Source: Gammaproteobacteria bacterium
GTDB taxonomy: Bacteria; Pseudomonadota; Gammaproteobacteria; Eutrophobiales; Eutrophobiaceae
Length of the DNA: 64,000 bases
Assembly (NCBI GenBank): GCA_965222155.1
Contig: CBDCTH010000004.1
Span: 384,001-448,000, forward strand
Direction of reading: 5' to 3'
Below are positions 27,722 to 49,104 of this stretch, piece by piece (positions within the stretch are counted from its first letter, which is position 1; every line of letters starts with the position of its first letter). Position numbers and translations under genes: made by a program. The notes under the pieces are model-generated. The model saw only the letters and a list, made by a program, of their open reading frames with translations. It did no database searches and was not told where the DNA came from.

Positions 27722-28060
27722 CAAATCCGGGACCAAATCCGGGACACCCATAAAATCGTTTTGTGGGTGTCCCGAATTAATGGGTGTCCTGAATTAATGG
27801 GTGTCCTGAATTAATGGGTGTCCTGAATTAATGGGTGTCCTAATGGGTGTCCTGAATTAATGTCCTGAATTAATGGGTGTCCCGAATTAATGGGTGTCCT
27901 GAATTAATGGGTGTGAATTAATGGGTGTCCCGAATTAATGGGTGTCCCGAATTAATGGGTGTCCCGAATGAATTAATGGGTGTCCCGAATTAATGGGTGT
28001 CCCGAATTAATGGGTGTCCCGAATTAAGGGTGTCCCGAATTAATGGGTGTCCCGAATTAG
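27722..28060. repeat. Second ATGGGTGTCC(T/C)GAATTA satellite with truncated units
   Basis: About 17 tandem full or partial units after one inverted GGACACCCAT arm. Confidence 0.93.
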
Positions 28061-28074
28061 CTTTCCCAAGTCGC

Positions 28075-30479: not shown

Positions 30480-33400
30480 ATGCCAATTTCAATTGAGAAA
30501 TCACCGCAAGATGCGCCTGCAGCTCTCGACACCGGGTTCAGCTTCGCACCGCATTCTGATGGTTCATTCGATGAGAAAAATAACACGTTTATGGGCACAC
30601 TTAACGACTCGTCCGATGTAGACTGGATCGTAATTGATTTGCGAGCGGGGAAAGAGTACACAATCGGCGTGAAAGGCGATAAGGGTGGGGTGAATGACAC
30701 CATCCTGAAACTCCTCGATTCAAAGGGTGGCATTGTTGAAGATAATGACGACGTTGACGGCGCCAAGGGGGAGCTCAACTCGGAAGTGATGTTCACCCCG
30801 AAAGAGGACGCCAAATACTACATCAGCGTCAGCGCCTATACGGGTAACCCGCAAGCGAAAATGGACAATAAGGGCGCTTACACGGTTACGGTGACAGAGG
30901 AGGACGTAGGTCCTGCGGATATTCACGGTACTAAAACGCAGACAAACTCACCGGCACCGACGCAGGAGAGGAGATCGATGGGAAGGAAGGTAACGACGAA
31001 TTGAAGGGCGGAAGCGGTAACGACAACTTGATAGGCGGCGACGGTAATGACTTGCTCGTAGGCGGTTCGGGCGCCGATACGCTCAGTGGCGGCGCTGGCG
31101 ATGACACGATATCTTACGAGGATTCAATAAAGGGCGTTACCATAAACCTGCTCACCGACACGGCCAAGGGTGGCGACGCCGATGGAGATACGATTGTTGA
31201 TAAGAAGGGTGATCAGATCGAGAACGTTCAGGGTTCCATGTATGATGACCGGCTCACCGGTAATGATGTGGGCAACAAACTCTGGGGCTTGGGTGGCAAT
31301 GATGAACTGAACGGTGGCAGGGGCGCAGACACCTTGTCTGGCGGCCCCGGTGACGATGCTCTGGACGGTGGAGATGACAATGACACCCTGGAAGGCGGCG
31401 CCGGCGCGGACGAACTGACCGGCGGCAAGGGTGACAATACCGCATCCTACGCTAGTTCGGAGATGGGCGTGACGGTACGTCTTCATGCTTCCAAGGCCAT
31501 GGGCGGCGACGCCGAAGGCGATACCTTTGGCGGGATGGTAACTGTGAAGTATACGGATGAGGATGGCGATCCTCAAGGGGAAAACCTCCCTGATATAATT
31601 AAGCTTACAGGTTCTGCTCACGACGATATACTGGCGGGCGACTTCAGGGATAACGTAATCGAGGGCGGCGCCGGCAACGATAGGCTGTACGGCGGCCCGG
31701 GTGGTGGTGATGGCAAAGGTGACGACACTAACAAGGACACGCTGCATGGTCAGGCTGGCGACGATAAGCTGTACGGTGGTGCCGGCGATGACAAGCTGTA
31801 CGGTGGTGCCGGCAGTGACGTGCTCTGGGGCGGCCCGGGTGAAGACACCTACGAGGGCGGCGCTGGTGATGATACCATTCACGCCGATAAGGATGACGTG
31901 ATGATTGATGGTGATGGTGATGGTGATGATGAAGACGACGCAACTGAGAATGGTAAAAACGACACCGTATCTTATGCGAAGTTAGATGATGGAGTTACCA
32001 GGATCCTTGGAGGAACTGGGGACGGCGTAACGATTAGTAACGTTGAGAACATTATCGGGTCTCAGGGCGACGACAACCTGACCGGTGATGATAGAAATAA
32101 CGTCATTGAAGGTGGCGAGGGTGGTGATACTCTTATAGGTGGAGGAGGAGAGGACACCTTATCCTATGCCAGTTCGGATGACTGGGTCAGGGTATCGCTT
32201 GCCACTGAAACTGCCTCCAGGGGGCACGCTTCAGGTGATGAGTTCCAAAACTTCGCAAATATTACCGGGTCTGGTCACGATGACGACCTGACCGGCAACG
32301 ACGAAGACAATGTGCTTAAGGGCGGTGACGGTGATGATGATCTGGTTGGTAACGAGGGCGCTGATACGCTGGAAGGCGGTGCTGGAGCCGATGAGTTGGA
32401 CGGCGGTATTCCTAATGCTACTAGTCAAGAAGGCGCTGGCGAGGAGGCAGATCTCGACGATACCTTGTCCTATGCAAGTTCGAACGCTGGCGTCACGGTA
32501 CACCTGGCTGGTGCCAGGGTTTCCGGCGGTCATGCCACAGGTGATACTATTGCGACTGTTGAAACGGACCATGATAAGGACGCAAAGACAGACAAAATTG
32601 ACGTCTCTACCTTCGAGAACGCTACCGGATCTATGTATAATGACACATTAACAGGCGATTATATGGACAACAAGCTCACCGGCAACGCCGGTGATGATAC
32701 CCTCAAGGGCGGTGCCGGAGCGGATACGCTTAACGGCGGCCCCGGGGCGGACACGCTTGATGGTGGATCGTCGTTGGAGGAAGGTGGTGATACCCCTAAC
32801 AACGCAACTGATGATAAGCAACACGTGGATATCGCATCCTACGCCGGAGCAACGGCAGGCGTTACAGTGGACTTGAGCACCGGCAGAGGGACGGCGGGCG
32901 ACGCCAAAGGCGATACGCTTGACGATATTGAGAAAGTCATGGGATCTGCAAATGATGATACGTTCATTGCCAGTGCAGGGGCTGACGACATTGATGGCAG
33001 CGCCCACGATGGGGACGACGAGGGAGACGAAGGTGGTGACGGTGATACCGTATCCTATGAAGCATCAGGAGCAGGCGTTGCTGTGACTTTGATGGGTGAT
33101 AACAATGCCACTATCCCCTCCAAGATTGGTACTGGTGATGCTGCTGTCGAAAATGGCGCCGCTGGCGATGTGCTTTCCAATATCGAGAACCTTACCGGGT
33201 CTGCTCAAGGTGATTCTCTGACTGGAGACGGAAATGACAATACCCTCAAGGGCGGTGATGGCGGTGACACACTGATGGGCTTAGCTGGTAATGACATGCT
33301 GATGGGCGACGCCGGCGATGACACACTGAATGGCGGCGCCGGCGATGACACACTGAATGGCGGCGCCGGCGATGACACACTGAATGGCGGTGATGGCAAA

Positions 33401-33745
33401 AACACACTGAATGGCGGTGCCGGCGATGACGTACTGAATGGCAATGCCGGCGGCGTTGACACCTTCGTATTCAGCCCCGATGATGGGGATTGGGATGATG
33501 TCATTGTTGACTTCGATGAAGGAACCGATAAAATTGACCTGTCAGCTTTCAGAAACCTTAATGCTGATGCTCTGAAGGATCTCATAGAAGTACGAGGGAG
33601 CAGCGTCATAATCGATCTGACTGGTCTTGGCGGAGGGAAAATTGCAATACAAGATGATGGCGCTGGTAACGCTAGGGCTTTGGAGGGAGTTCTAGAAAGC
33701 ACCCTAACAGACGACAATTCGGCAAATGATGTTTTCATCCTCTGA
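30480..33745 (+). pseudogene. RTX Ca-binding repeat surface protein, copy 1 (PPC-like N-domain), split by a -1 frameshift near 30935
   Basis: GGxGxD nonapeptides; ORFs 30480-31004 and 31001-33745 join if one base is added at ACT-AAAA-CGCA, by comparison with copy 2. Confidence 0.85.
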
Positions 33746-33991
33746 TCAACCTGAGCATCAAAACCAGCTTCCTGATTTCACGGAAGTAAACGATCACAGG
33801 GGCGGTTTAGCCGGGTTTCCCGTTTAAATCAGCCCCTGTTTTATTAAAAGGGGTCGGTGACAAATGAGAACAAAGTGATCGGGGTCAGGTCGCACAATGC
33901 GCAGTGTTAAAACCCGATTGACAACGAGCCTCAGCCAAGCTACACTGCCTGAACGATTAACTGGAAGTTGTAAGAAAAGGAGGTACACCCG

Positions 33992-34252
33992 ATGATAAAT
34001 CAAGAAGCCCAACCGAATGGCAGCATGGAGGCCTTCGCCAGCGCCTTTTCCAACCTGGTAAAAGACGCCACCTCACACCTGGCCACCAAGGACGACCTCG
34101 CCAACATGGCCGCCAACATGGCCACCAAGGACGATATCAATAAACTTTCCGACAGGATAGACAAGGTAGAGCAAACGGTAGCGGAAGGCTACAAGCGCAT
34201 TTATAGCTGGAGAGACGAGATGTATAAGACGTTTGTCCGAAAAGCAGAGTAA
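33992..34252 (+). CDS. Small ATKDD-repeat coiled-coil protein
   Basis: Strong RBS aggagg; HLATKDDLANMAANMATKDDI; identical copy at 44842-45102. Confidence 0.75.
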   Translation: MINQEAQPNGSMEAFASAFSNLVKDATSHLATKDDLANMAANMATKDDINKLSDRIDKVEQTVAEGYKRIYSWRDEMYKTFVRKAE

Positions 34253-34641
34253 TCCAGGACACCCATAAATCAGATAGACGTATCTGTAGCCTTCGAGAGT
34301 CTGGTAGTGTCAAATTTGTTTCGCACTTTTTTCTCTGGGGTCGAGTAATTCAGGACAACCACAAATTAGATAGCCATACCCTGTAGCCTTCCAGGGTCGG
34401 ACCCGTATGACCCCATTATAAGAATGGATGCCGGGTCAAGCCCGGTATGGCGACGAAGGAGTCGCCCCCCTGTCGCCGTTCCGGCGAACGATGAGAATCT
34501 GTGATGATTTGTGATAAAACCCACAACCTCGGGGAAAAATGTGTGGACAGGTTCGATGCATACAATTATATTAAAGATAACTCAGAACCGGTAGATAACA
34601 GGCTCGCACTGACCACATAAGGAGACTAAGGAAAATACACC

Positions 34642-34905
34642 ATGTCAATGGAATTAATTGCAATCATAGGCGTCGGCGTCACGCTGGCCGGGCTTATCCT
34701 GAATGGTCAACACAACCTGCGGAATGAGATAGGCGGCTTGCGGGAAGAAATTAATGGCCTGCGGGAAGAAATTAATGGCTTGCGGGAAGAAATTAATGGC
34801 TTGCGGGAACGCATGGCACATCTGGAAGGATTGCTTGAGGGCCTGCGTGAGGCTATTACCGGTCGACGTGTGGCCGAAGACTCCGGACAATACGACCCAC
34901 GCTGA
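34642..34905 (+). CDS. Membrane-anchored coiled-coil protein (MSMELI family), 87 aa
   Basis: N-terminal TM helix, LREEING heptads, conserved ERMAHLEGLLEGLREAITGRRVAE tail. Confidence 0.75.
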   Translation: MSMELIAIIGVGVTLAGLILNGQHNLRNEIGGLREEINGLREEINGLREEINGLRERMAHLEGLLEGLREAITGRRVAEDSGQYDPR

Positions 34906-34983
34906 CCTGTCCCTTCCTGCTTCCGCAGGAATTACGAGTACGGGTTTCTGCATTATTATCGGGTAAATGGAGTAATTCAGGGA

Positions 34984-35260
34984 GCAAATCCAGGACACCC
35001 ACAAATCTAGCTTCCTGATTTCACGGAAGTAAACGATCACAGGGGCAGAGTAATCCAGGACACCCATAAATCAGATAGATGGATCAGAGTCAGAACCTGT
35101 TTCCCAGGACAGTAATCCAGGACACCCATAAATCACACTGCCTTCAAAAGGTAGTTGCCCACACTTCCTTAAACCAGAACACCCATAAATCCTGTCCATC
35201 CTGTTAATCCATGTGAGAGTAATCCAGGACACCCATAAATCACGCTGCCTTCAAAAGGTA
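34984..35260 (+). repeat. CRISPR-like mini-array: 24-bp repeat AGTAATCCAGGACACCCATAAATC with 26-41-nt spacers (continues after IS630 to ~36825)
   Basis: Repeats at 34984, 35049, 35111, 35168 and 35218; spacers of 41, 38, 33 and 26 nt; no cas genes in the window. Confidence 0.8.
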
Positions 35261-35273
35261 GTACTCTTTCAAT

Positions 35274-36398
35274 TTAATTCTGACCGGTTAAATTGTCGTA
35301 TGCCCTGTGCAGTTTGGTCCGAGCCTTATCGACATCAAACAGCCAGTTGATGCTTGCTTTCTCCTGGTTGCGTTGGGTCTCCCAGGCCGCCAGTTCCGAT
35401 TGCAACAAGCCCATGCTGTCTATGCGACGGTCCAAACATTGCTGGTTCATGTTGCCAATCTCAATCTCCACCCTGTTCAACCAACTGGCGTGCTTGGGCG
35501 TATAATGAAACGCCAGCTTGCGCAATAACCGCCGCGCCGCTGGCGCCGGGAATGCCCGGTACAAGGCGGCCGGCTGGTGGGTGCTGTAGTTATCCAGCAC
35601 CACCCGTATGCGCTCGGCCTCCGGGTAATGCTCATCCACCAGTTCACGCATCAACTCGGCAAAGTCGCCCGCTTTCTTGGTCTTAGTCGCCTTGGCATGG
35701 CGCCAGCCACGATGCTGGTCAAAACACACAAAGATAGTCGCCACCCCCTTGCGCTCGTATTCATAATCTATCTTATTCACTTGGCCGGGCGCCATCGGCC
35801 TGCCCGCCTGCACCTCCCCCACCAATTGTTTCGTTGCCTCGTCCACGTTCACCAGCGGCCTCTCAGGACAGGACGGCTCAGCATACACATCCAGAATGTG
35901 CTCCATCTGCGCACTAGACGCCGCATCCATCTGCCCCAAACACCACATCTTCTGTTGCCAGGGTTTTAACTGATTCGCCTTCAAACGCTGCCGGATGCTC
36001 TCCAGGGATACCGCCTCCATATCCGTCAGCGCCACCCAGCGCGCCGCCAACAACGATAACGTCCACCGGCACCGGCCCGGTGGCGGGGCGCTGCACGCAA
36101 TCGATACCAGCAATGCATCCTCATGCGCCCCCGTCTTGCGCGGCCGACCGGGGCGTGCCCCTTCCGACAGCGCCGCCTCCAATCCATACTCCACAAACTC
36201 CCGCTTCACCCGATACACCGTCGAGCTGCTCACCCCCAACGCCTCGACGATCTCCTCCTCACGCCGTACACCACCGTCCGCCAACAACAATATCTGCGCC
36301 CGCTTCAACGCCCGTACCCGTTGCCTCCCTTGGGATGTAAATGCCTCCAAATACCCCCGCTCCTCAGCCGTCAGTTCCACCCTGTACCGAATATGCAT
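35274..36398 (-). CDS. IS630 transposase
   Basis: N-terminal HTH; DDE motifs NVDE, VLDNYSTH, HYTPKHASWLNRVE. Confidence 0.92.
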   Translation of the reverse strand: MHIRYRVELTAEERGYLEAFTSQGRQRVRALKRAQILLLADGGVRREEEIVEALGVSSSTVYRVKREFVEYGLEAALSEGARPGRPRKTGAHEDALLVSIACSAPPPGRCRWTLSLLAARWVALTDMEAVSLESIRQRLKANQLKPWQQKMWCLGQMDAASSAQMEHILDVYAEPSCPERPLVNVDEATKQLVGEVQAGRPMAPGQVNKIDYEYERKGVATIFVCFDQHRGWRHAKATKTKKAGDFAELMRELVDEHYPEAERIRVVLDNYSTHQPAALYRAFPAPAARRLLRKLAFHYTPKHASWLNRVEIEIGNMNQQCLDRRIDSMGLLQSELAAWETQRNQEKASINWLFDVDKARTKLHRAYDNLTGQN

Positions 36399-36449
36399 GA
36401 CCTTGACCCTCATAGGATAAAAGCGATAATAGATCATAAAATATCCGAT

Positions 36450-36713
36450 ATGTCGATCCCTGACGCTCCAATACCGCAACCCGGCTACACCTATCTGCAA
36501 GGCCAGTACCTCGCCTTTATTTACTACTACACCAAAATCAACGGCAGAGCGCCCGCACACGCCGATTTACAACGCTACTTCCAGGTCTCGCCTCCTTCCG
36601 TCCATCGCATGTTGACCCATTTGCAGGAGCAAGGATTCATTGACAAACAACCGGGGATGACTCGTAGCCTGGCACTGGCTATACCCGTTGAACAACTGCC
36701 ACGGCTTGATTAA
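36450..36713 (+). CDS. LexA-type winged-helix regulator carried by IS630
   Basis: TYLQGQYLAFI...RAPAHADLQRYFQVSPPSVHRML...GFI; lies inside the IRs. Confidence 0.75.
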   Translation: MSIPDAPIPQPGYTYLQGQYLAFIYYYTKINGRAPAHADLQRYFQVSPPSVHRMLTHLQEQGFIDKQPGMTRSLALAIPVEQLPRLD

Positions 36714-37409
36714 TGTTGACCCGTCAACTGATCAAAATTAAATGGAAAGAGTACTAGTTGCCCACACTTCCTTAAACCAGGACACCCATAAATCCTGTCC
36801 ATCCTGTTAATCCATGTGAATTCAACGTAAACAGCACAAAAGGGGTCGGTGACAAATGTAAATAATTCTCATTTGTCACCGACCCCTTTTATTGCTTTTA
36901 TTCTGTACCTTTGTATTACACCATTCCAGAACCTGCCCCGGAGACGTTGTTGTTCCAGGGGCGTGCTTCAGCGACACGAAATCAGACTGGGTTCCGGCTT
37001 AAGCCGGGCATGACACCCCACGTCGTACCGGACAGTGCAAATAGAAGACAGACCGCATTTTCTCTCCTCTGTGACAACCCGTCCCTTCTACCAGCCGGAT
37101 ACAGGGCAACCGCATACTTTTGGATTCTGTTGCAGAAGACAGGAAACCAACCGGAAAACACCGCCCGTCATGCTGGCGAATGCCAGCATCCAGTCAAACA
37201 ACAGCGCATGCTCAGGGTAATGAAGGGTTATTCACTGGATTCTGGCCTGCGCCAGAATGACGGAATCGGGCAAAAACATCTGAATTCAAAAGTATGCGTT
37301 TGCCCTGCAGCCGGATATTGGTTTTACCGGAATCGGGTTTGATCTATATAATAATCGTGCTATTGTGCATCAATAGTATGATTTTCTACTTTATCTGCTG
37401 CAGACTGAC

Positions 37410-37667
37410 ATGACGACCATTCGAAAGACGATTACCTTGACGGAAAATCAGGACGAGTGGGTCAAAGCGCAGACTGCCAATGGCGAATTCACCGATGACA
37501 GTGAATACATCCAGGCTCTTGTGCATCGTGACCAGAAGCAAAACATCAAGTTTCGAGCACTTAAAGTGGCTATTCAGGAGGGTTTGGATAGTGGTGTGAG
37601 TGACAAGACAGTGAATGAGATCATGGAGGAAGTCGATGGCCGGCATGGAGCCGATGGCAGCTTATAG
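37410..37667 (+). CDS. parD: ParD-like RHH antitoxin
   Basis: RKTITLT..QDEWVKAQ..GEF...SEYI, ALKVAIQEGLDSG. Confidence 0.85.
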   Translation: MTTIRKTITLTENQDEWVKAQTANGEFTDDSEYIQALVHRDQKQNIKFRALKVAIQEGLDSGVSDKTVNEIMEEVDGRHGADGSL

Positions 37668-37956
37668 CTTATCGTTAAAAGCAGCTGCTGATCTTGATGG
37701 AATTTATGAATACACGCTCCTGAATTTCGGGCAGACACAGGCACGAAAGTACCTGATGGGCCTTCATGAATGCTTTGAGAGGCTTGCCGATAACCCGTAC
37801 TATGGCCGCAGTGTGGTAGAGCTTGCATCAAACTTAAGGCGCTTGGAGTATCAATCACACGTAGTGTTCTACAGACCGAGAGAACAAGGAGTGCTGATCG
37901 TGCGTGTGCTGCATGAGAGCATGAATACAGCAACACATTTCCAGGAAAAAATCTAA
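37654..37956 (+). CDS. parE: ParE/RelE toxin
   Basis: YSLSLKAAADLDGIYEYT..FG..QA..Y, SHVVFY, IVRVLHESM. Confidence 0.87.
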   Translation: MAAYSLSLKAAADLDGIYEYTLLNFGQTQARKYLMGLHECFERLADNPYYGRSVVELASNLRRLEYQSHVVFYRPREQGVLIVRVLHESMNTATHFQEKI

Positions 37957-38230
37957 TTCGTGAAAAAGGGAGACAGGCCAGCCCGGTCTCAGCATAGGAC
38001 TGGAAAGTAATCCAGGACACCCACAAATCACACTACCTTCAAAAAGTAGTTTCCAACACTTCCTTAAACCAGGACACCCATAAATCCTGTCCATCCTGTT
38101 AATCCATGTGAATTCAAAGCAGTAATCTAGGACACCCACAAATCATGCTGGGTAATGTCAATATTTACTTTATCAATGGATAACCTGCGGTGATTTGTGA
38201 TAAAACCCACAAGCGCCGGGAAAAAATGTG

Positions 38231-39613
38231 TGTTGTCAACAAATAGATTTGTCCGCTTCTGTAACAAATGAATTGTCCGCTTTTGTCTTCACACTGACAT
38301 CCTCCAGAAAGACAGAGTCCGACAAGGATCGTCCAGTGCCGACTGTGCGGCGGACATTACGCAGCAGTCGGTAGTTCATCGGCTATGAGCTGTCCTTGCG
38401 CATCGTATCGTGCCAAGCGCCGGGGGCCATGAAATACACTCACCGTCCCATCCCTATGACGAGCGACCTTCACCTTGGCCTTGATGTAGTGATACCGATG
38501 CCGGTCGGCCGGAAGCTGTAATACCAGGCCGTCTACACGCACGCAGTTGTCCTTGCTCACGGTTCGCGCAACATGCTCACACAGGCTGTCATCCAGTACC
38601 ACTGACTGTGGGCAGGGCACGAAGGCCGAGCCGTCCTCCCGCGCCGGGTGGGTAAACTCGGCATTAAACGCCGGCAGGTAGACGTCCCGCAGATACGCAT
38701 TGGCGGCGTCCATCGTGGTAATACCGGCCGCGGCCAATTCCTGCGGCAAACGTCCCTGGTGCGTGCCAAACGCCCGCTCCGAGCGCCCCCGGGCCGCCGG
38801 GGAATACGCCGGTATCATCTCAATACCCAACTGCGTCATGGCTCGTCCGAACTGTGTCAGATTGCCCTTGTCTACCTTGCCCCCGGCCTCCGGCGTCGTC
38901 CAGTAATGACTGCCCCGGTCGGTGTATAACGAGCAAAACAAGCCCCTCGCCTCAATCACGTCTTTCACGCCCTGAAAACTGCTCTGTGTGCCTTCCTCCG
39001 CACAAAAGAACATCGAGTAATGCTCATTCGTGGCATCATCCATCGTCACAATCAAATCCCAGTGCTGCGCCGGTACCCACTCGTGCGTGCTGCCATCCTG
39101 GTGCAGCAGCATCCCCGGCCAGGCCGCCGGCTCGCGCCGTTTCCGATGCGCCCCGCGTTTGGCCGCTTTCTTCACCACCCCGCCAGCCTGCAACGTATTC
39201 TTCACCCAACTGTAACTGCGCCCACCCCCGTCCCGCCGATACCACGAATAGTAATGCGTCACGTTCCAACCGTCGTGTCGCCGTCGATACCGGTCTACCA
39301 ACCGCATGACCTCGTCCACCGGCGCCCGCCGGTGTGATACCTGACTCAGGCGCTTGTCCAGTAACCCGTCCAACCCGGCGTCTTCATACCGGTCGATGTA
39401 ACGTCGGAAGGTCCGGGCACACACGCCCAGTAACTGTGCCGCGTCCTCCTGGGTTAATCGCCGCGCTGTCCAACCCCTATAGGCTTCTTCAAATCTCATC
39501 AGTTTTGTCTCCTGTAACCAGTTTGTCCGCGTCATCATGCCTCCCAAAAGCTAACATGATAAAACCGGACAGATTATGTGTTACAGATGCGGACAGTTTA
39601 TTTGTTCTCAACA
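38231..39613. mobile_element. IS1202-like (ISNCY) insertion sequence
   Basis: Terminal IRs TGTTGTCAACAAATAGATTTGTCCGC / TGTTGAGAACAAATAAACTGTCCGC; imperfect 16-bp direct repeat (gccgggaaaaaatgtg / tccaggaaaaaatgtg). Confidence 0.85.
38357..39547 (-). CDS. DDE transposase (rve-type)
   Basis: HQDGSTHEW, MDDAT, LYTDRGS, AYSPAARGRSER. Confidence 0.9.
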   Translation of the reverse strand: MGGMMTRTNWLQETKLMRFEEAYRGWTARRLTQEDAAQLLGVCARTFRRYIDRYEDAGLDGLLDKRLSQVSHRRAPVDEVMRLVDRYRRRHDGWNVTHYYSWYRRDGGGRSYSWVKNTLQAGGVVKKAAKRGAHRKRREPAAWPGMLLHQDGSTHEWVPAQHWDLIVTMDDATNEHYSMFFCAEEGTQSSFQGVKDVIEARGLFCSLYTDRGSHYWTTPEAGGKVDKGNLTQFGRAMTQLGIEMIPAYSPAARGRSERAFGTHQGRLPQELAAAGITTMDAANAYLRDVYLPAFNAEFTHPAREDGSAFVPCPQSVVLDDSLCEHVARTVSKDNCVRVDGLVLQLPADRHRYHYIKAKVKVARHRDGTVSVFHGPRRLARYDAQGQLIADELPTAA

Positions 39614-39727
39614 TCCAGGAAAAAATGTGTGGACAGGTTCAACGCATAGAATTATATTAAAGATAACTCAGAACCGGTAGATAACGGGCACGCGCTGACT
39701 ACACAAGGAGACTAAGGAAAATACATC

Positions 39728-40024
39728 ATGTCAATGGAATTAATTGCCTTAATCGGTATCGGCGTGACGGTAATCAGTATCGGCGTTGCGCTGGCCGCTC
39801 TTATCCTGAATACTCAACGTAACCTGCGGTCTGATATGCAGGCTCAGCGGGAGGAGACGCGGGCAGAATTCAAGGCCGTGAGGGTGGAGATGCAGGCCCA
39901 GCGGGAAGTAATAATCAGTTTACTGGAACGCATGGCACACCTGGAAGGATTGCTTGAGGGTCTGCGAGAAGCGATCACAGGCCGACGCGTGGCTGAGGAT
40001 GCGGGGAAATACGATCCGCGCTGA
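39728..40024 (+). CDS. MSMELI-family TM coiled-coil protein, 98 aa
   Basis: Paralog with conserved upstream region and C-terminus. Confidence 0.75.
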   Translation: MSMELIALIGIGVTVISIGVALAALILNTQRNLRSDMQAQREETRAEFKAVRVEMQAQREVIISLLERMAHLEGLLEGLREAITGRRVAEDAGKYDPR

Positions 40025-40373
40025 ACACCGGCGCCAACCTCTCGCACATTGTCCAGAGTAATCCGGGACACCCATAAATCACACTGCCTTCAAAAGGTAG
40101 TTGCCCAAGAGTAATCCAGGACACCCATGAATCCTGTCCATCCTGTTAATCCATGTGAATTCAAGAGTAATCCAGGACACCCACAAATCATGATGGGTAG
40201 TGTCAATATTTTCGTTATAAATGGATAACCTGCGGCGATTTGTGATAAAACCCACAAGCGCCGGGGAAAAATGTGTGGACAGGTTCAAAGCGCACAATTA
40301 TATTAAAGATAACTCAGAACCGGTAGATAACGGGCTCGCGCTGACTACATAAGGAGGCTAGGGAAAATACATC

Positions 40374-40649
40374 ATGTCAATGGAATTAATTGCCTTAATC
40401 GGTATCGGCGTGACGGTAATCAGTATCGGCGTTGCGCTGGCCACTCTTATTCTGAATACTCAACGTAACCTGCGGGCTGATGTGCGAGCCCAGCGGGAGG
40501 AGACGCGGGCAGAATTCAAGACCCAGCGGGAAGCAATAATCAGTTTACTGGAACGCATGGCACACCTGGAAGGATTGCTTGAGGGTCTGCGAGAAGCGAT
40601 CACAGGCCGACGCGTGGCTGAAGATGCGGGGAAATACGATCCGCGCTGA
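40374..40649 (+). CDS. MSMELI-family TM coiled-coil protein, 91 aa
   Basis: Paralog with conserved upstream region and C-terminus. Confidence 0.75.
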   Translation: MSMELIALIGIGVTVISIGVALATLILNTQRNLRADVRAQREETRAEFKTQREAIISLLERMAHLEGLLEGLREAITGRRVAEDAGKYDPR

Positions 40650-41134
40650 ACACCGGCACCAACCTCTCGCACATTATCCAGAGTAATCCAGGACACCCAT
40701 AAATTATGCTACCTTCAAAAGGTAGTTTCCAACACTTCCTTAAACCAGGACACCCATAAATCCTGTTAATCCATGTGAATTCAACGTAAACAGGAGACAG
40801 CCCCCTTTTCTTTGAGTTGTATCAGAGTCTTGTGTGCTTTCCCACAGTAATCCAGGAAGTAATCCAGGACACCCATAAATCAGATAGATGGATCAGAGTC
40901 AGAACCTGTTTCCCAGGACGATTTGACACTACCCAGCGCCTGCATGCCGTTGAACAGGAGATGAAATTATTTACGTTTTCAATGGATAACCTGCGGCGAT
41001 TTGTGATAAAACCCACAAGCGCCGGGGAAAAATATGTGGACAGGTTCAACGCATACAATTATATTAAAGATAACTCAGAACCGGTAGATAACGGGCTCGT
41101 GATGACTACACAAGGAGACTAAGGAAAATATATC

Positions 41135-41464
41135 ATGTCAATGGAATTAATTGCCTTAATCGGTATCGGCGTGACGGTAATCAGTATCGGCGTTGCGCTG
41201 GCCGCTCTTATCCTGAATACTCAACGCAACCTGCGGGCGGAGATGCAGGCTCAGCGGGAAGAAACGAAGACAGAATTCAAGGCCCAGCGGGACGAGACGC
41301 GGGCAGAATTCAAGGCCGTGAGGGTGGAGATGCAGGCCCAGCGGGAAGTAATAATCAGTTTACTGGAACGCATGGCACACCTGGAAGGATTGCTTGAGGG
41401 TCTGCGAGAAGCGATCACAGGCCGACGCGTGGCTGAAGATGCGGGGAAATACGATCCGCGCTGA
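41135..41464 (+). CDS. MSMELI-family TM coiled-coil protein, 109 aa
   Basis: Paralog with conserved upstream region and C-terminus. Confidence 0.75.
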   Translation: MSMELIALIGIGVTVISIGVALAALILNTQRNLRAEMQAQREETKTEFKAQRDETRAEFKAVRVEMQAQREVIISLLERMAHLEGLLEGLREAITGRRVAEDAGKYDPR

Positions 41465-41862
41465 ACACCGGCGCCAGCCTCTCGCACATTGTCCAGAGTA
41501 ATCCAGGACACCCATAAATCAGAGAATATTTGGGGTCAGAGTAAAAATACTCAACAATAAACCAGCGCCACCTGCCAGCCTGATTGTATTTTTACTCTGG
41601 CCCCATACATGTGTGAATCTGTTCGCAGCGACAATCTGGCGTGAGGGGCGCTCCACTCCTGCACGATGCAGGGGATCGTGATTTAAGAAAAAATTCTGTT
41701 CGCTATTGCAAGGACAAATGGATAAAGGGAAAACACAGCGAATTTCAAAACTTTTAATTCGGCTTGCATGTCAACATGGTTTTCCTGGTGGAAAAAGCCG
41801 CTTTTTACATGGATGGACAGGATAAGAGTATATTTTCCAAATAGCGCTCTTTTACTGTCAGG

Positions 41863-42399
41863 TCAACGCTGCTCATACTGACCCGGGGCTTCAGCTACGG
41901 CCTCTGCTACAACGCGCCGGCCGGTGATGGCTTCACGTAGGCCTTCAAACAAGCCTTGCAGGTGCGCTATGCCTACTTGTACATTTTTTATTTCTTCCCG
42001 TACGTCCTTGAATTCTGCCTGCATCTCTGTTCGTTGGGCCTGCATCTCTTCCCGCACGGCCTTGAACTCTTCTCGCACGGCTTTGAATTCTGCCTGGGTC
42101 TCTGTTCGTTGAGCCTGCATCTCTTCCCGCACTGCCTTGAACTCTTCCCGCACTGCCTTGAATTCTGCCTGGGTCTCCGTTCGTTGAGCCTACATCTCTT
42201 CCCGCACGGCCTTGAATTCTTCCCGCACGGCCTTGAATTCTGCCTGGGTCTCTGTTCGTTGGGACTGCATTTCTTCCCGTACGGCCTGTATTTCTTTCCG
42301 CTGGATACCCTGACCATTCAGGATGAGGGTGGCCAATCCTACGCTGACGCCGATAATTGTTATGCCGACGCTGATAATCGCTATTAATTCCATTGACAT
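41863..42399 (-). pseudogene. MSMELI-family paralog with one in-frame nonsense codon (CAG>TAG at 42190-42192)
   Basis: ORFs 42190-42399 and 41863-42153 share a frame; the neighbouring repeat reads GAG ATG CAG GCT where this one reads GAG ATG TAG GCT. Confidence 0.8.
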
Positions 42400-42872
42400 G
42401 TCGTGTTTCCCTCAGTCATCGTGTGTTGTCATCAGGTGTCCATTATGTCCCGGTTTTGAGCCATTTTCAATATAAAAGTACGTACTGATATTGTCATGTA
42501 GAAAATAAACCTGCCTGTTTTTCTAAGGAACTTAAAGAAAATAGGTATCCCGGATTACTTCCTGCTACACCATGTATGGGGCCAACACTTCCTTAAACCA
42601 GGACACCCATAAATCCTGTCCATCCTGTTAATCCATGTGAATTCAAGAGTAATCCAGCAAAGTAATCCAGGACACCCACAAATCATGATGGGTAGTGTCA
42701 ATATTTTCGTTATAAATGGATAACCTGCGGCGATTTGTGATAAAACCCACAAGCTCCTGGGAAAAATGTGTGGACAGGTTCAACGCATAGAATTATATTA
42801 AAGATAACTCAGAACCGGTAGATAACGGGCACGCGCTGACTACACACACAAGGAGACTAAGGAAAATACATC

Positions 42873-43256
42873 ATGTCAATGGAATTAATTGCCTTAATCG
42901 GTATCGGCGTGACGGTAATCAGTATCGGCGTTGCGCTGGCCACTCTTATTCTGAATACTCTACGCAACCTGCGGGCTGATATGCGAGCCCAGCGGGAGGA
43001 GACGCGGGCAGAATTCAAGGCCGGGCGGGTGGAGATGCGAGCCCAGCGGGAGGAGACGCAGGCAGAATTCAAGGCCATGCGGGAGGAGATTCAGGCCCAG
43101 CGGGAAGAAACGAAGACAGAATTCAAGACCCAGCGGGAAGCAATAATCAGTTTACTGGAACGCATGGCACACCTGGAAGGATTGCTTGAGGGTCTGCGAG
43201 AAGCGATCACAGGCCGACGCGTGGCTGAAGATGCAGGGAAATACGATCCGCGCTGA
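42873..43256 (+). CDS. MSMELI-family TM coiled-coil protein, 127 aa
   Basis: Paralog with conserved upstream region and C-terminus. Confidence 0.75.
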   Translation: MSMELIALIGIGVTVISIGVALATLILNTLRNLRADMRAQREETRAEFKAGRVEMRAQREETQAEFKAMREEIQAQREETKTEFKTQREAIISLLERMAHLEGLLEGLREAITGRRVAEDAGKYDPR

Positions 43257-43669
43257 ACACCGGCGCCAACCTCTCGCACATTGTCCAGAGTAATCCAGGA
43301 CACCCATAAATTATGTTGCCTTCAAAAGGTAGTTTCCCACATACTGTCAACCCAAGATAGAAATATCCCCATGTTGAGTAAGTCAGGGAGTGGTAGCGGT
43401 GGCGGAAGCAGGTGAGTGTTGCCGCCAGGGATAGTCAGATAAGAATATTTGGGGTCAGAGTAAAAATACTCAACCCTAAACCAGCGCCACCTGCCAGCCT
43501 GATTGTATTTTTACTCTGACCCCATACATGTGTGGGTCAAGCAACAGGGGTGTTAGGAACAAATAAACTGTCCGGTCCCGTATCGGTGTACGGGACAAGC
43601 TTTATCATGTTAGATTCCAGGAGGAATGATGACGCTGACAAGGTGGTTACAGGGGACGAGTCACACGTT

Positions 43670-44119
43670 GACCTTCAGGTGAAGGTCCTGGACTATGAAG
43701 CACAGCGTCCGTCGGGCAAGGTGCAGCAGTTTACCTGGGTGACCGATAATTCCCTGCATAGCGACACCCTGATGCGGCGGCTGCGCGGGGCGCGGGCGCG
43801 TGGGAAGAGTGAGAACGAGACAGTTACACCCCTGAAGCACCCAGGCGACCACGTTGAGCATACCCTCCAACACGGCTATCAGCACCTGTCCACGGTGCTG
43901 GCGTACCTGATGAGGCTGGCGTGTCTGATTGACCCGGTGCAGCAGCACTGCTGCGGGCTGTTTCAACAGGGGGTGGCGAAGCAGGGCTGCAAGCGTGACT
44001 TCTAGGAGAAACTGCGCAGCGTCTTCTCCATCTGGTTGTTGCCGGACTGGGAGACGTTGTATCGGGGTGCTGGCCTATGGCGCCGCCCCGACCGTGGTGG
44101 TGCCGTATGATACCGCTTG
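43670..44119 (+). pseudogene. Degenerate DDE transposase remnant
   Basis: FTWVTD...GARARGKSENET...EHTLQHGYQHLSTVLAYLM resembles the RARWKIENE..FEHNFGHG motif of IS transposases, but is degraded and stopped. Confidence 0.6.
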
Positions 44120-44841
44120 AGGGCGGGCCGGGGTCGAGCAGTTCAGGGTTCTAACCCGCATATCTCCACCGGTTGCCTACCATGACCTGAATTCGAGTAT
44201 TTTTCAATGATTTTATCCAGTGTGTAGGTGCTCCCGCTAAATCGCGAACACAGGGGGGACGGATTTAAATCTGTCCCCCAAGTTCCGCTGACCATAAAGT
44301 GGCATGTTTCCCTGGTAGGGAGGGCGTCTCGCCCTCCACGAGGGGAAGATGCCCTCGATCCCGGGAGTTAGCGGGAACTGTTGTTCAGTGTGTAGACGCA
44401 TAGTCGTAATGTCCCCTTTTTGTTTGAGAGAGGAGAAGGACGTTGACCAAATAGAGGGTCATGAGCATGGCAGAAATAGAACGGTTATAGGTGATCTGCG
44501 AGGTAGAGCAGAAGCGTCTTCGACAACGTCCCCTTCTTTGCACATGGATTAACAGGATGGACAGGATTTATGGGTGTTCTGGTTTAAGGAAGTGTTGGAA
44601 ACTACCTTTTGAAGGCAGCGTGATTTATGGGTGTCCTGGATTACTGCTTACTTGTGCGGGAATGGTCAGTAGGCGGTACATTTTACCCCCAAAATGACCC
44701 TTTTAAGCTCATTTATAGTCCCGTTTTAGTATTTATCCATAATATAATCAATGTGTTATCCAGAGTCATAAGGGTCCGACCCTAGAAGTCCAGACTCTCG
44801 AAGGCTACAGATACGTCTATCTGATTTATGGGTGTCCTGGA

Positions 44842-45102
44842 TTACTCTGCTTTTCGGACAAACGTCTTATACATCTCGTCTCTCCAGCTATAAATGCGCT
44901 TGTAGCCTTCCGCTACCGTTTGCTCTACCTTGTCTATCCTGTCGGAAAGTTTATTGATATCGTCCTTGGTGGCCATGTTGGCGGCCATGTTGGCGAGGTC
45001 GTCCTTGGTGGCCAGGTGTGAGGTGGCGTCTTTTACCAGGTTGGAAAAGGCGCTGGCGAAGGCCTCCATGCTGCCATTCGGTTGGGCTTCTTGATTTATC
45101 AT
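44842..45102 (-). CDS. Small ATKDD-repeat coiled-coil protein (identical to 33992-34252)
   Basis: Identical translation. Confidence 0.75.
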   Translation of the reverse strand: MINQEAQPNGSMEAFASAFSNLVKDATSHLATKDDLANMAANMATKDDINKLSDRIDKVEQTVAEGYKRIYSWRDEMYKTFVRKAE

Positions 45103-45172
45103 CGGGTGTACCTCCTTTTCTTACAACTTCCAGTTAATCGTTCAGGCAGTGTAGCTTGGCTGAGGCTCGTTG

Positions 45173-45439
45173 TCAATCGGGTTTTAACACTGCGCATTGT
45201 GCGACCTGACCCCGATCACTCCAGCTATAAATGCGCTTGTAGCCTTCCGCTACCGTTTGCTCTACCTTGTCTATCCTGTCGGAAAGTTTATTGATATCGT
45301 CCTTGGTGGCCATGTTGGCGGCCATGTTGGCGAGGTCGTCCTTGGTGGCCAGGTGTGAGGTGGCGTCTTTTACCAGGTTGGAAAAGGCGCTGGCGAAGGC
45401 CTCCATGCTGCCATTCGGTTGGGCTTCTTGATTTATCAT
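45173..45439 (-). CDS. Tandem duplicate of the ATKDD protein with altered C-terminus
   Basis: 337-bp tandem duplication; identical until KRIYSW. Confidence 0.65.
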   Translation of the reverse strand: MINQEAQPNGSMEAFASAFSNLVKDATSHLATKDDLANMAANMATKDDINKLSDRIDKVEQTVAEGYKRIYSWSDRGQVAQCAVLKPD

Positions 45440-45689
45440 CGGGTGTACCTCCTTTTCTTACAACTTCCAGTTAATCGTTCAGGCAGTGTAGCTTGGCTGA
45501 GGCTCGTTGTCAATCGGGTTTTAACACTGCGCATTGTGCGACCTGACCCCGATCACTCGATCACTCCATTTGTCACCGACCCCTTTTAATAAAACAGAGG
45601 CCGATTTAACCGGGTTGTGCCCGGTTAAACCGCCCCTGTGATCGTTTACTTCCGTGAATTCAGGAAGATGGCTTCAATGCTCAGGTTGA

Positions 45690-48600
45690 TCAGAGGATGA
45701 AAACATCATCTGTCAGATTGTCATCTGCTAGGCTGACTATACTACCTTCTAGATATATCTCCAACTCTTTAGCGTCCTCAACGCTATTATCTTGTATTCC
45801 AATTTTCCCTCCGCCAAAATCAGTCAGATCGATTACGACGCTTTTCCCTCGTACTTCTATGATATCCTTCAGAGCATCAGCATTAAGGTTTCTGAAAGCT
45901 GACAGGTCAATGCGATCGGCGATATCACGATCGAACTCCAAGATGAGATCATCCCCATGTCCATCATCGGGGCTGAATACGAAAGTGTCATTGCCATCGC
46001 CGCCATCCAGTATGTCATCGCCAGCGCCGCCATTCAGTGTGTCATCGCCATCACCGCCATCCAGTGTGTCTTTGCCGGCACCGCCGTACAGCATGTCATT
46101 ATCGCTGCCGCCTCCCAGTTTGTCATCACCGGCGTCGCCCATCAGTGTGTCATCGCCATCACCACCCTCCAGCGTGTCACCGCCATCACCGCCCTTGAGG
46201 GTATTGGCATTTCTGTCTCCAGTCAGAAAATCAACTTGAGCAGACCCGGTAAGGTTCTCGATATTGGAAAGCACATCGCCAGCGGCGCCATTTTCGGCAG
46301 CAGCATCACCAGTACCAATTTCGTCTCCAATGATGTCTTTGCCCAAAGTCACAGCAACGCCTGCTCCTGATGCTTCATAGGATACGGTATCACCGTCTTC
46401 CTTATCACCGTCCTTTGGATTATCCATATTGTGGCCACCGCCATTAATCACGTCGACCCCTTCACTGGCAATAAACGTATCATCATTTGCAGACCCCTCG
46501 ACTTTCTCAATATTGACAAGCGTATCGCCATCGGCATCGCCTGCGGTACCTCTGCCGGTAGCCAGGTTCACCGTCACTCCCGCCTCTGCGTCGGTGTAAG
46601 ATGCGATATCCATAGAAGCATCGTTTTCCCCTGGATCTTCTCCACCATCAAGCCTGTCGGCGCCAGGGCCGCCGTTAAGCGTATCCGCTCCGGCACCGCC
46701 CTTGAGGGTATCATCACCGGCGTTGCCGGTGATGATGTTGTCCCTGTAGTCACCGGCCAATGTGTCATTATGCATAGAGCCGGTAGCGTTCTCGAAGGTG
46801 GAGACGTCAATTTCGTCTGTCGGATTGTTGTCGTCTTTGTCCCCATCATGGTCCGTTTCAACAGTCGCAATAGTATCGCCGTTGGCATGACCGCCGGAAA
46901 CCCTGGCGCTAGCCAGGTTTACCGTGACGCCAGCGTTCGAACTCGCATAGGACAAGGTATCTTTGAGATCCGAGACTTGATTATCTGCCTTAGACTCACC
47001 ACCGTCCAACTCGTCGGCTCCGGCACCGCCTTCCAGTGTATCAGCGCCCAAGCCACCGACCAGCTCATCATCACCATCACCGCCCTTGAGCACGTTGTCT
47101 CCGCCGTTGCCGGTCAGGTCGTCATCGTGAGTAGACCCAGCGATATTTTTGAAGCCAGTGGCTTCATCGCCTGAAGCGTGACCCCTGGAGGCAATTGCAG
47201 CCTCATCGTCGCCATCACGCAGCGTTACCCTGACCCAGTCATCCGAGCTGGCATAGGACAAGGTGTCCTCTCCTCCTCCACCTTTAAGAGTATCACCACC
47301 CTCGCCGCCTTCAATGATGTTATCTTCTGTATCACCGGTCAGCGTGTCGTCGCCCTGAGACCCGATAATGTTCTCAACGTTCTCAATCTTTACGTTACTC
47401 GCAGATTCTGTATCTCCAAGGATCCTGATAACTCCTTCCTCTAACTTCGCATAAGATACGGTGTCGTTTTTACCATTATCAGTTGTGTCGTCTTGATCAT
47501 CACCATCAATCGCCTTGTCATCCTTATCTGCGTGAATGGTATCATCACCAGCGCCGCCCTCGTAGGTGTCTTCACCCGGGCCGCCCCAGAGCACGTCATT
47601 GCCGTCGCCGCCTTCCAGCGTGTCTTCGCCGGCACCGCCGAACAACATGTCATCGCCAGCATCACCATGCAGCGTGTCCTTGTTAGTGTCGTCACCTTCG
47701 CCATCACCACCACCCGGGCCACCGTACAGCTTATCGTTGCCAGCGCCACCCTTGATTACGTTATCCCTGAAGTCGCCCGCCAGTATATCGTCGTGAGCAG
47801 AACCCTTAAGATTAATTATATCGGGGAGGTCTTCATCTTGATCATCGCCATCTTCATCCGTATACTTCGCAGTTACCATCCCGCCAAAGGTATCGCCTTC
47901 GGCGTCGCCGCCCATGGCCTTGGAAGCATGAAGACGTACCGTCACGGCCATCTCCGAACTGGCGTAGGACGCGGTATTGTCACCCTTGCCGCCGGTCAGT
48001 TCGTCCGCGCCGGCGCCGCCTTCCAGCGTGTCATTGTCATCTCCACCGTCCAGAGCATCGTCACCGGGGCCGCCAGACAGGGTGTCATCGCCGGCGCCAC
48101 CGTTCAGTTCATCATTGCCACCCAAGCCCCAGAGTTTGTTGCCCACATCATTACCGGTGAGCCGGTCATCATACATGGAACCCTGAACGTTCTCGATCTG
48201 ATCACCCTTCTCGTCAACAATCTCATCTCCATCGGCGTCGCCACCCTTGGCCGTGCCGGTGAGCAGGTTTATGGTGACGCCCTTTATTGATTTCTCGTAA
48301 GATATCGTGTCATCGCCGCCGCCGCCACTGAGCGTATCGGCGCCCGAACCGCCTACGAGCAGGTCATCACCGTCGCCGCCTTTCAAATCGTCGTTACCGC
48401 TTCCGCCCTTCAATTCGTCGTTACCTTTACCCCCATCAATCTTCTCTCCTGCGTCGGTGCCGTCGAGTTTGTCTGCCAAATCAGTACCGGTAATATCCGC
48501 AGGACCTACGGCCTTCTCTGTCACCGTAACCGTGTAAGCGCCCTTATTGTCCACTAGCGGGTTACCCGTATAGGCGCTGACGCTGATGTAGTATTTGGCG

Positions 48601-48932: not shown

Positions 48933-49104
48933 AACTTTTTTCTCCTGTGCTATCAGATAGAAGTAAACGAATTCTTTTGGTTTATCGCATTACCAAGCAA
49001 TAAAAGCGCCGTGATTGACAGTTATGACCTCTTATATTGATATACTCCACAATTTTCTTGCAGTGAAGCGTCAATAAAATGAACCAACTTTGAGGATGTT
49101 AATC

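Follow-up and report, generated by a model that had tools for sequence, protein, structure and literature searches.

The DNA at positions 34,984 to 36,825 of the window, the whole 64,000-nucleotide stretch that was analysed, is probably a cluster of REP-type repeats of a RAYT-like gene, located at the joints of amplified small-gene cassettes and reshaped by recombination. As bacterial repeats go, such a cluster is fairly ordinary. The first-pass annotation had interpreted the region as a cas-less CRISPR-like array in which an HUH system captures short pieces of DNA. The link to an HUH gene and the presence of modules bordered by the repeat were upheld, whereas the likeness to CRISPR and the capture of DNA as a rule were not. 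The features on which the analysis is based are as follows (R, repeat; R', variant repeat; s1, a, b and c, pieces between the repeats).

13342-14307, minus strand: RAYT-like HUH/Y1 gene of 321 aa (P0001) with HYH and YVELNPVRAG motifs
33746-33844, plus strand: 3' flank and terminator hairpin of the RTX gene 31001-33745, local match of s1
34984-35007, plus strand: R0, degenerate R copy with 4 mismatches, preceded at 34972 by the partial head copy AGTAATTCAGG
35008-35048, plus strand: piece s1, a third occurrence of the left half of the RTX-gene 3' flank and terminator stem
35049-35110, plus strand: R and piece a, 62 nt, 100% identical to 40858-40919
35111-35217, plus strand: intact composite unit R-b-R'-c, 107 nt
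35218-35260, plus strand: R followed by the left portion of another b piece, ending at a TA target site
35261-36754, minus strand: 1494-bp insertion sequence of the IS630 family; terminal inverted repeats imperfect, TA duplication at 35259-35260 and 36755-36756
36755-36825, plus strand: right part of the split unit, with the rest of b, R' (36771-36794) and c
36827-36903, unstranded: hairpin formed by a second repeat, GGGGTCGGTGACAAATG, in two inverted copies
38006-38144, plus strand: joint R-b-R'-c-R between a ParDE pair and cassette 2
39561-43341, plus strand: run of small-gene cassettes for proteins with a membrane anchor plus a coiled coil
about 44540-44645, minus strand: inverted unit R-b-R'-c, 97% identical to 35111-35215
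45589-45701: inverted twin of the RTX 3' flank, beside the RTX gene 45690-48932

The sequence confirmed that a 24-bp direct repeat alternates with pieces of 41, 38, 33 and 26 nt, as had been annotated. The repeat R (AGTAATCCAGGACACCCATAAATC) has 25 matches with at most three mismatches in the window, compared with 0.00 expected from 100 shuffles. The cluster contains three perfect copies, starting at 35049, 35111 and 35218, and three degenerate ones, at 34984 and 35168 with four mismatches each and at 36771 with three. Every copy is in direct orientation, and the start-to-start distances are 65, 62, 57 and 50 nt, followed by 1553 nt across the insertion sequence. The pieces between the repeats are s1 (35008-35048, 41 nt), a (35073-35110, 38 nt), b (35135-35167, 33 nt), and c (35192-35217, 26 nt). 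The variant repeat R' differs from R in its 5' part, and at position 40110 a full R occupies the place normally held by R'. The 23 R copies, tabulated with their flanks, have sharp borders and unrelated sequence on either side, which supports the earlier description of the region as modular, with module borders at the repeat. R is a local variant of the motif AATTYRGGACACCCATAAATT.

The second composite unit is interrupted by the IS630 element, whose minus strand encodes a transposase (35274-36401) and whose plus strand has a small HTH reading frame; related copies of 80-88% identity are present on contigs C12 and C9. Excision of the element in silico restored an intact unit; the first-pass annotation had not mentioned the insertion. 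An ISNCY-family element (transposase 38357-39547, minus strand) splits the 5' region of cassette 2. The hairpin at 36827-36903 gave the only Rfam matches at a permissive threshold, which were chance matches to microRNA precursors. The repeat GGGGTCGGTGACAAATG that forms this hairpin also adjoins another Y1_Tnp gene, at C12:2623939.

The first spacer had been described as an exact copy of the DNA at 33766-33803, and the two sequences are indeed identical at 38 of 38 positions, at a distance of 1.2 kb. An inverted third copy at 45667-45632 is identical at 35 of 36 positions. The end of s1, GGGGCAG, corresponds to the flank as it reads in the relative G019, and the left end of s1 exhibits the microhomology CAAAxCxA. 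The RTX flank upstream of s1 was considered as a degenerate copy of R and rejected, as about 8 of 24 positions agree by eye.

Comparison of the spacers with the genome itself, which had been proposed as a check, showed that all four recur; including the copies in the array, s1 is present in three places, a in two, b in seven, and c in eight. Piece a begins with AGATAG, like the sequences that follow the motif in relatives. Piece b contains a small hairpin (CTGCCTTCAAAAGGTAG) and adjoins the repeat in two other species as well, with hairpin-preserving changes in G000, G019, and G014. Piece c is one of 34 copies of ACATGGATnnACAGGATnnACAGGAT, a separate dispersed repeat family, and the order b-R'-c is the same at all six R' copies. 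Three of the four spacers, a, b, and c, are not captured DNA, and the capture of DNA pieces by an HUH enzyme as a rule was not borne out. Only s1 and one 62-nt unit of R and a end exactly at R borders, which leaves room for cutting and joining at R of the kind that E. coli TnpA-REP carries out in vitro. Plain segmental duplication does not explain these two exact ends.

All of the mini-arrays that had been reported in the neighbourhood, at 38006-38144, 40057-40189, 40682-40920, 42585-42685, and inverted at 44540-44645, exist. They are the joints of tandemly duplicated small-gene cassettes. The cassette genes are located at 39728-40024, 40374-40649, 41135-41464, and 42873-43256, together with one reversed broken copy near 41900-42400, and an earlier cassette contains a gene at 34642-34905 with a promoter-like site at 34544. 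Each intact cassette gene on the plus strand has a promoter-like sequence TGGACA-17-TATATT upstream and a copy of R 33 nt past its stop codon. In the genome as a whole, the motif lies at most 90 nt after the stop codon in six of the seven copies of the small gene. The repeat families D1, D3, D4, and D8 reach from R into the adjacent small genes. Among genomes of the genus, 20 of 22 gave matches to cassette DNA, as did none of 18 genomes from outside the genus. In G019, one small gene is truncated exactly at a copy of R, and gene and repeat share GTAATC. The cassette copy at C12:466.9-467.5 kb has no clean empty site in G019, where the flanking blocks are oppositely oriented. A terminator scan returned 14 sites, compared with 12.4 expected, and none on the plus strand inside the array, so a role of R-b as a terminator is unsupported.

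The repeat had been called RAYT-associated, and its surroundings support this. The motif borders the RAYT-like gene at 13024-13140 and 14395-14570, and every one of the 12 orthologous loci examined has copies no more than about 250 nt from the gene. Eight loci have them on both sides; of the remaining four, two are interrupted by contig ends. The gene is single-copy in the genome and is located 21 kb upstream of the repeat cluster. Its product P0001 matches the Pfam family Y1_Tnp with an E value of 4.8e-4 and 20.7 bits, below the curated cut-off of 23, and the NCBIfam family REP_Tyr_transpos with an E value of 9.7e-11 and 41.7 bits, below the curated cut-off of 80. The AlphaFold model of P0001 has a pLDDT of 85.7, and its best fold match in the PDB is the REP-associated tyrosine transposase 4er8_A (E 3.4e-5), followed by the TnpA proteins of IS608 and ISDra2. 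The RAYT structure was found by the fold search only; sequence searches of the PDB with P0001 and with a 28-sequence profile gave no match. Close orthologues are encoded in 13 of the 22 genomes of the genus. The genome G014 contains the motif and the cassettes, yet no orthologue was found in it with P0001 as the query. The evidence favours REP-type repeats linked to a domesticated HUH transposase.

The motif AATTYRGGACACCCATAAATT has about 240 copies in the genome, concentrated in about 150 kb around the RAYT-like gene, and the 10-mer GGACACCCAT occurs 224 times, compared with 9.6 expected. In the window, 120 of 121 core copies are outside the listed genes, which constitute 71% of it. Close neighbour pairs are mostly direct (160), with 29 convergent and two divergent, and 27 direct arrays of at least three copies are present genome-wide. 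Partial heads of the motif precede many full copies. In unrelated intergenic gaps, copies of the motif are arranged as hairpin pairs and as 17-nt and 27-nt tandem arrays, and the motif is also found in gaps between housekeeping genes, such as rnfA-rnfB-rnfC. The search across genomes used the degenerate motif as the query in place of exact R. Exact matches to the 21-nt motif occur in at least 83 stretches of other gammaproteobacterial genomes, and exact matches to the 21-nt R in none.

Among known systems, the closest comparison is with the REP and BIME clusters of REPtrons, as described in the available parts of PMC3333891, PMC8266576, and PMC5581495. In both, an HUH/Y1 gene is flanked by its own short repeat, which lies outside genes in clusters with linkers that vary. 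The RAYT-flanking form of the motif may be read as an imperfect, bulged palindrome (AATTTGGG-ACA-CCC-AT-AAATT). The REPtron characteristics found here are a gene with HUH and Tyr motifs, flanking repeats, and extragenic over-representation. The region differs from REPtrons in several respects. Classical BIMEs alternate in orientation, whereas the array copies are all direct, and the local R lacks the palindrome. At 26-41 nt the linkers are long, and they are conserved modules in their own right. The copies are concentrated near the gene rather than spread genome-wide, and the 321-residue protein scores under the curated family cut-offs. R alone does not fold (-0.1 kcal/mol), and the RAYT-flanking motif folds weakly (-2.6 kcal/mol, z -0.89), with 47 of 200 shuffles folding as well; the palindrome that defines REPs is therefore poor in this family.

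The REPINs of Pseudomonas, REP doublets that form hairpins according to the available text of PMC5581495, resemble the motif in that convergent pairs far outnumber divergent ones and in that the RAYT-like gene is kept across the genus. They differ in that direct tandem copies are commonest here and the array contains no inverted doublet.

The BOX elements of pneumococci are modular mosaic repeats, in which short modules vary in number and order in intergenic DNA. The region resembles them in arrangement and differs in that one of its modules is linked to an HUH gene.

Based on these comparisons, a history of the region can be proposed. A cassette consists of R, a promoter region, a small gene for a protein with a membrane anchor and a coiled coil, another R, and the hairpin b, and consecutive cassettes are separated by R' and piece c, which comes from another family of dispersed repeats. 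The sequence shows that whole cassettes were duplicated and that their joints were thereby copied to several places. Units may then have been added, removed, and swapped between copies of R, whether through unequal recombination, slippage, or cutting and joining catalysed by the RAYT. One IS630 element probably inserted into a unit later, and s1 may be a leftover or transferred fragment of an RTX 3' flank that now lies between two copies of R. The likeliest role of the repeats, if they have one, would be as 3' end structures of the small-gene transcripts, as is usual for REPs. The uniformly direct orientation of the array copies, the poor palindrome of R, and the scores of P0001 below the family cut-offs speak against the REP-type explanation.

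A more active role of the enzyme is unlikely but deserves to be weighed ahead of the other alternatives. The RAYT-like enzyme would cut single-stranded DNA at R borders and join the ends to other R copies. Anything between two R sites, including linker modules, whole cassettes, and fragments such as s1, would be moved or copied as a unit. The sharp R borders with unrelated sequence on both sides are consistent with such shuffling, as are s1 and the 62-nt unit bounded exactly by R, the full R in place of R' at 40110, the small gene of G019 cut off at R with GTAATC common to both, and the partial motif heads ahead of full copies. TnpA-REP of E. coli cuts in linkers in vitro and generates products with an extra REP and new REP-linker combinations, as described in the available part of PMC3333891, which parallels the idea discussed here. 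However, short direct repeats promote slippage and RecA-dependent unequal exchange, which yield the same products, and the microhomologies at the junctions (CAAAxCxA at the left end of s1, GTAATC in G019) require no enzyme. Furthermore, most recurrences continue past R into genes, and R lacks the hairpin that known RAYTs need.

It is very unlikely that the R arrays are binding sites of a protein that recognises double-stranded DNA, such as a regulator or nucleoid protein, and controls the small genes. The motif closely borders each small gene on its upstream and its downstream side and is exactly conserved across species, which would agree with such a function, but it also forms tandem arrays and hairpin pairs in unrelated gaps. 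Its presence beside the RAYT-like gene at all 12 loci fits a mobile repeat better than an operator.

The reading as an orphan CRISPR-like array, with captured spacers between the repeats and guide-like RNAs processed from its transcript, is highly improbable and already largely refuted. The region resembles CRISPR arrays in its 24-bp direct repeats, the similar-sized pieces of 26-41 nt between them, and the one piece that exactly duplicates a sequence 1.2 kb distant. It differs from them in that all four pieces recur in the genome, three of them being modules conserved in other species, and in the irregularity of piece lengths, repeat sequences, and spacing. Segmental duplication beyond the repeats, which had been set beforehand as evidence against the reading, was found: the homology between mini-arrays continues into the flanking small genes. 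Cas1, the only cas gene searched, gave five matches, all on C12 and none on the contig of the array. The true CRISPR arrays of the genome, at C12:582525-586353 and C12:2251602-2253455 (53 and 28 repeats), have repeats that differ from R. Rfam gave no match over the window at the gathering score, and no CRISPR family over 33700-45700 at E values up to 1. The segment 34984-35262 had no blastn match among 50,697 phage and 72,556 plasmid records, from which mobile elements of this uncultured host may be missing. The only promoter-like site ahead of the array is that of the small gene. The array appears to hold no stored foreign DNA, and guide-like RNAs from it are not supported.

We rejected the similarly improbable reading as an integron-like array, in which the tyrosine recombinase at 49090-50073 would use the R-b-R'-c joints as recombination sites: tandem small genes with a repeated site at each border and a gene of the Phage_integrase family about 3.4 kb beyond the region recall integron cassette arrays, but the recombinase is of no IntI type and matches no family above its cut-off (best, a generic Xer-type model, 49.9 versus 220 bits), an RTX gene separates it from the cassettes, which carry promoter-like sites of their own, the joints lack the imperfect hairpin of attC sites, and the motif is also found in housekeeping gaps.

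The genome is a 12-contig assembly with contamination rated at 7.28%, and the assembly is a caveat here, since the region contains 431-nt inverted repeats that are 100% identical. Logan contigs from two runs matched 34781-35038 and 35233-35510 without difference; the runs may be the source sample, so the match is not independent support. Logan joints across the array, for example from 35133 to 35220 and from 35110 to 38162, fall at repeats, with sides just 21-30 letters long, and are indistinguishable from graph ambiguity. In one RNA run, 13 of 15 contigs were just 90-95% alike, so the run has no bearing on transcription of the array.

A cas-less CRISPR system that captures nearby DNA would have been striking; the evidence favours the ordinary class of REP-type repeats. 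The case for reshuffling by RAYTs has so far been built on in vitro experiments with the E. coli enzyme. The REP family described here is unusually readable: it is concentrated near its own gene, forms mostly direct arrays, is base-exact across species, and is regularly present at both ends of a duplicated small-gene cassette. It is doubtful that HUH-driven shuffling of cassettes, with R as the working sites of the RAYT, operates throughout this genus of uncultured gammaproteobacteria; if it did, it would be a single-strand counterpart of the integron rather than a CRISPR. The family is a convenient natural case in which to ask whether RAYTs reshuffle the DNA between their sites in living cells.

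The 24-bp direct repeat R (AGTAATCCAGGACACCCATAAATC) matches the window at 25 sites when up to three mismatches are allowed; 100 shuffles gave no match. Twenty of the matches fall at 34.2–44.9 kb, and relaxing the search to the 18-nt core of R gave 23 copies at 33–46 kb. The analysis supports a REP/RAYT system, one cluster of which lies at the joints between duplicated small-gene cassettes. In the array at 34984–36825, three perfect and three degenerate copies of R, all in direct orientation, alternate with pieces of 41, 38, 33 and 26 nt, in agreement with the coordinates and lengths of the first-pass annotation. The first piece, s1 (35008–35048), had been described correctly as an exact copy of the 3′ flank of an RTX-repeat gene (31001–33745), since 38 of 38 nt are identical to 33766–33803, directly 3′ of the stop codon. 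The inverted twin of this flank at 45667–45632 is identical to s1 at 35 of 36 positions. The array also contains an IS630-family element, absent from that annotation, and an intact repeat unit is regained when the element is taken out. Contigs from two sequencing runs, which may be the source data of the assembly (12 contigs, 4.55 Mb, contamination rating 7.28%), matched the left array end and the IS junction with no differences.

A run of small genes, one further copy of which is broken and reversed, lies between two inverted RTX genes.

Features of the array and small-gene region
34642–34905, plus strand: small gene
35261–36754: IS630-family element, 1494 bp, with terminal inverted repeats and a TA duplication
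38233–39560: ISNCY-family element; transposase at 38357–39547, minus strand, 331.9 bits against a 250-bit cut-off
39728–40024, plus strand: small gene
40374–40649, plus strand: small gene
41135–41464, plus strand: small gene
42873–43256, plus strand: small gene
C12:467090–467437 (main contig, outside this region): small gene of the same family

The products have an N-terminal membrane helix or anchor, a coiled coil of short repeats that vary in number (for example, GLREEIN three times) and a conserved C-terminus, and they match no Pfam or NCBIfam family. All five intact plus-strand genes have a conserved promoter-like site upstream. R lies 33 nt past the stop codon in four of the five; the exception is the cassette at 34642, where the R-type copies begin with the degenerate R0, which starts 78 nt past the stop. 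A second R stands at the head of each cassette's promoter region. The direct-repeat families D1, D3, D4 and D8 extend from R into the small genes, and therefore the mini-arrays are joints of tandemly duplicated cassettes, in the order gene, R-b, R′-c, R and next promoter, where R′ is a variant repeat and b and c are the 33- and 26-nt pieces. Duplications thus reach beyond the repeats, the very outcome that the first-pass annotation had named as refuting its proposal. Within the genus, 20 of 22 genomes have cassette DNA, against none of 18 genomes outside it. The small genes of relatives likewise end beside an R-type motif, at times as a perfect inverted pair.

The RTX genes frame a region of 12 kb. 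An inverted repeat (33874–34304 and 44790–45220, 100% identity over 431 nt) comprises the RTX 3′ flanks, the first R copy and an 86-aa gene whose stop codon is part of R (AGTAA). On the right side this gene is in tandem (44879–45163 and 45216–45500). The ISNCY-family element interrupts the promoter region of one small-gene cassette, and a ParD/ParE toxin-antitoxin pair at 37410–37956 is located between two repeat joints within the cassette region.

All four pieces between the R copies recur in this genome. Piece b occurs in seven places and holds a small hairpin, whose stem is retained despite base changes (G-T, A-T and G-C at one pair); both here and in two other species it comes directly after R behind the small genes. 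Piece c occurs in seven places in the window and belongs to a separate dispersed repeat, ACATGGATnnACAGGATnnACAGGAT. Genome-wide this repeat has 34 copies, with places listed at 35192–35217 and five more in the window and 26 on C12, and many copies form convergent pairs about 130 nt apart. Such pairs often stand immediately behind genes and resemble the two ends of a miniature element. The 38-nt piece a occurs in two places and begins with AGATAG, as do sequences after the motif in three relatives (G019, G014 and G016); a longer a-type version at 34337–34400 is recognisably conserved in G014. The order around R′ is fixed, with b before and c after in six of six cases. Three of the four pieces are therefore fixed modules, and the suggestion that an HUH system captures DNA pieces between its sites does not hold for them.

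Several features at or near R are signs of repeated breakage and joining at this sequence. Both s1 and the 62-nt unit of R and a are bounded exactly by R and do not lie within longer duplications; the copies of the unit at 35049 and 40858 are 100% identical. The closest relative, G019, has a syntenic RTX gene followed by about 120 nt of the same flank and then an R-a type array, and therefore the order s1, R, a could be a leftover of this adjacency after a deletion. The end of s1, GGGGCAG, is that of the G019 flank; the local flank reads GGGGCGG. At the left border, s1 and the original flank have CAAAxCxA in common. In G019, one small gene breaks off precisely at the point where its GTAATC runs into an R copy, and at 40110 a full R stands in place of R′. 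Slippage, unequal exchange or cuts made by the enzyme would each yield products of this kind. Passages of PMC3333891 describe extra REPs with new linker combinations produced by the E. coli enzyme in vitro; the reshuffling half of the earlier proposal, a possibility for this array, therefore has a precedent in that in vitro system. The cas-less CRISPR-like array of the first-pass annotation was not borne out: all five Cas1 matches and the true arrays (53 and 28 repeats, unrelated to R) are on C12, Rfam gave no match at the gathering score, with hits at E ≤1 being chance matches to a hairpin, the array had no match in phage and plasmid records and is irregular in repeat sequence, in spacing and in piece length, and R on its own forms no fold.

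The repeat R represents a local form of a more widespread motif M, AATTYRGGACACCCATAAATT. Across the 4.55-Mb assembly there are 224 copies of the 10-mer GGACACCCAT, where 9.6 would be expected, with a density of 24.8 per 100 kb on C4, the contig of the window, and 1.6 per 100 kb on C12. Nearly all C4 copies of the motif lie at 310–460 kb, which includes the window (384–448 kb). Of the 121 core copies in the window, 120 are outside the listed genes, which occupy 71% of it, and copies are present even in gaps within the rnf operon. Close neighbour pairs are 160 direct, 29 convergent and 2 divergent, and the genome has 27 direct arrays of at least three copies. Beyond this genome, at least 83 stretches carry the exact 21-nt motif, and nearly all of them come from uncultured Gammaproteobacteria assemblies; a search of the same kind for the exact R variant gave no stretch.

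Motif runs and the RAYT-like gene
C4:379920–380438, just upstream of the window: head-to-tail motif run, 19 copies, 27-nt period
13024–13140 and 14395–14570: motif copies on both flanks of the RAYT-like gene
13342–14307, minus strand: RAYT-like open reading frame, 321 aa, with HYH and YVELNPVRAG motifs
19286–19921: head-to-tail motif run, 34 copies, 17-nt period
27752–28064: head-to-tail motif run, 15 copies, mostly 17-nt period

Partial "head" copies precede many full motif copies elsewhere, stutter-like. The zone of motif concentration spans about 150 kb around the RAYT-like gene and is no obvious island or plasmid, because it carries the housekeeping genes lptD, metG, rnf, cysG, fabAB, ispG and acs. 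Two small contigs each carry identical motif hairpin pairs separated by about 11.1 kb (C7:11030 and 22149; C10:34363 and 45492), which look as if they bound a repeated 11-kb unit.

The RAYT-like protein scores below the curated cut-offs of Pfam Y1_Tnp (20.7 bits, cut-off 23) and NCBIfam REP_Tyr_transpos (41.7 bits, cut-off 80), and is therefore a distant relative by sequence. With a structure model built on 28 homologues (pLDDT 85.7), the predicted fold matched the E. coli REP-associated tyrosine transposase (4er8_A, E 3.4e-5), the sole PDB match at E <0.001, followed by IS608, ISDra2 and IS200 transposases. At least 7906 of 8000 candidates scored are homologues at E ≤1e-5, some annotated at source as "REP element-mobilizing transposase RayT". 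Close orthologues (69–92% identity) occur in 13 of 22 genus genomes, as a single copy except in one genome with four; G014, which carries the motif and cassettes, gave no orthologue with this protein as query. The association of the repeat with a RAYT is supported, as the motif flanks the gene here and lies within about 250 nt of it in 12 of 12 orthologous loci examined, on both sides in eight; of the other four loci, two are truncated at a contig end. This layout is that of REPtrons, in which, according to PMC5581495, PMC3333891 and PMC8266576, the transposase gene is flanked by repeat copies. The hallmark of REPs is a palindrome, however, and M has a weak one and R none (−0.1 kcal/mol by itself); the uniformly direct orientation of the array copies is a further caveat.

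A second REP-type repeat, GGGGTCGGTGACAAATG, has 10 copies, often as hairpin pairs (33850–33866, 36842–36886, 45567–45583 and C12:2623770–2623814). It adjoins a different Y1_Tnp gene at C12:2623939, which suggests two or more RAYT/REP pairs in this genome. The long N-terminal part of an LptD-like open reading frame (1271 aa) contains about 15 repeats at regular intervals (2455–3766), which are probably a protein repeat.

The system described here belongs to the known REP/RAYT class, with one cluster of its repeats at the joints of a duplicated small-gene family.
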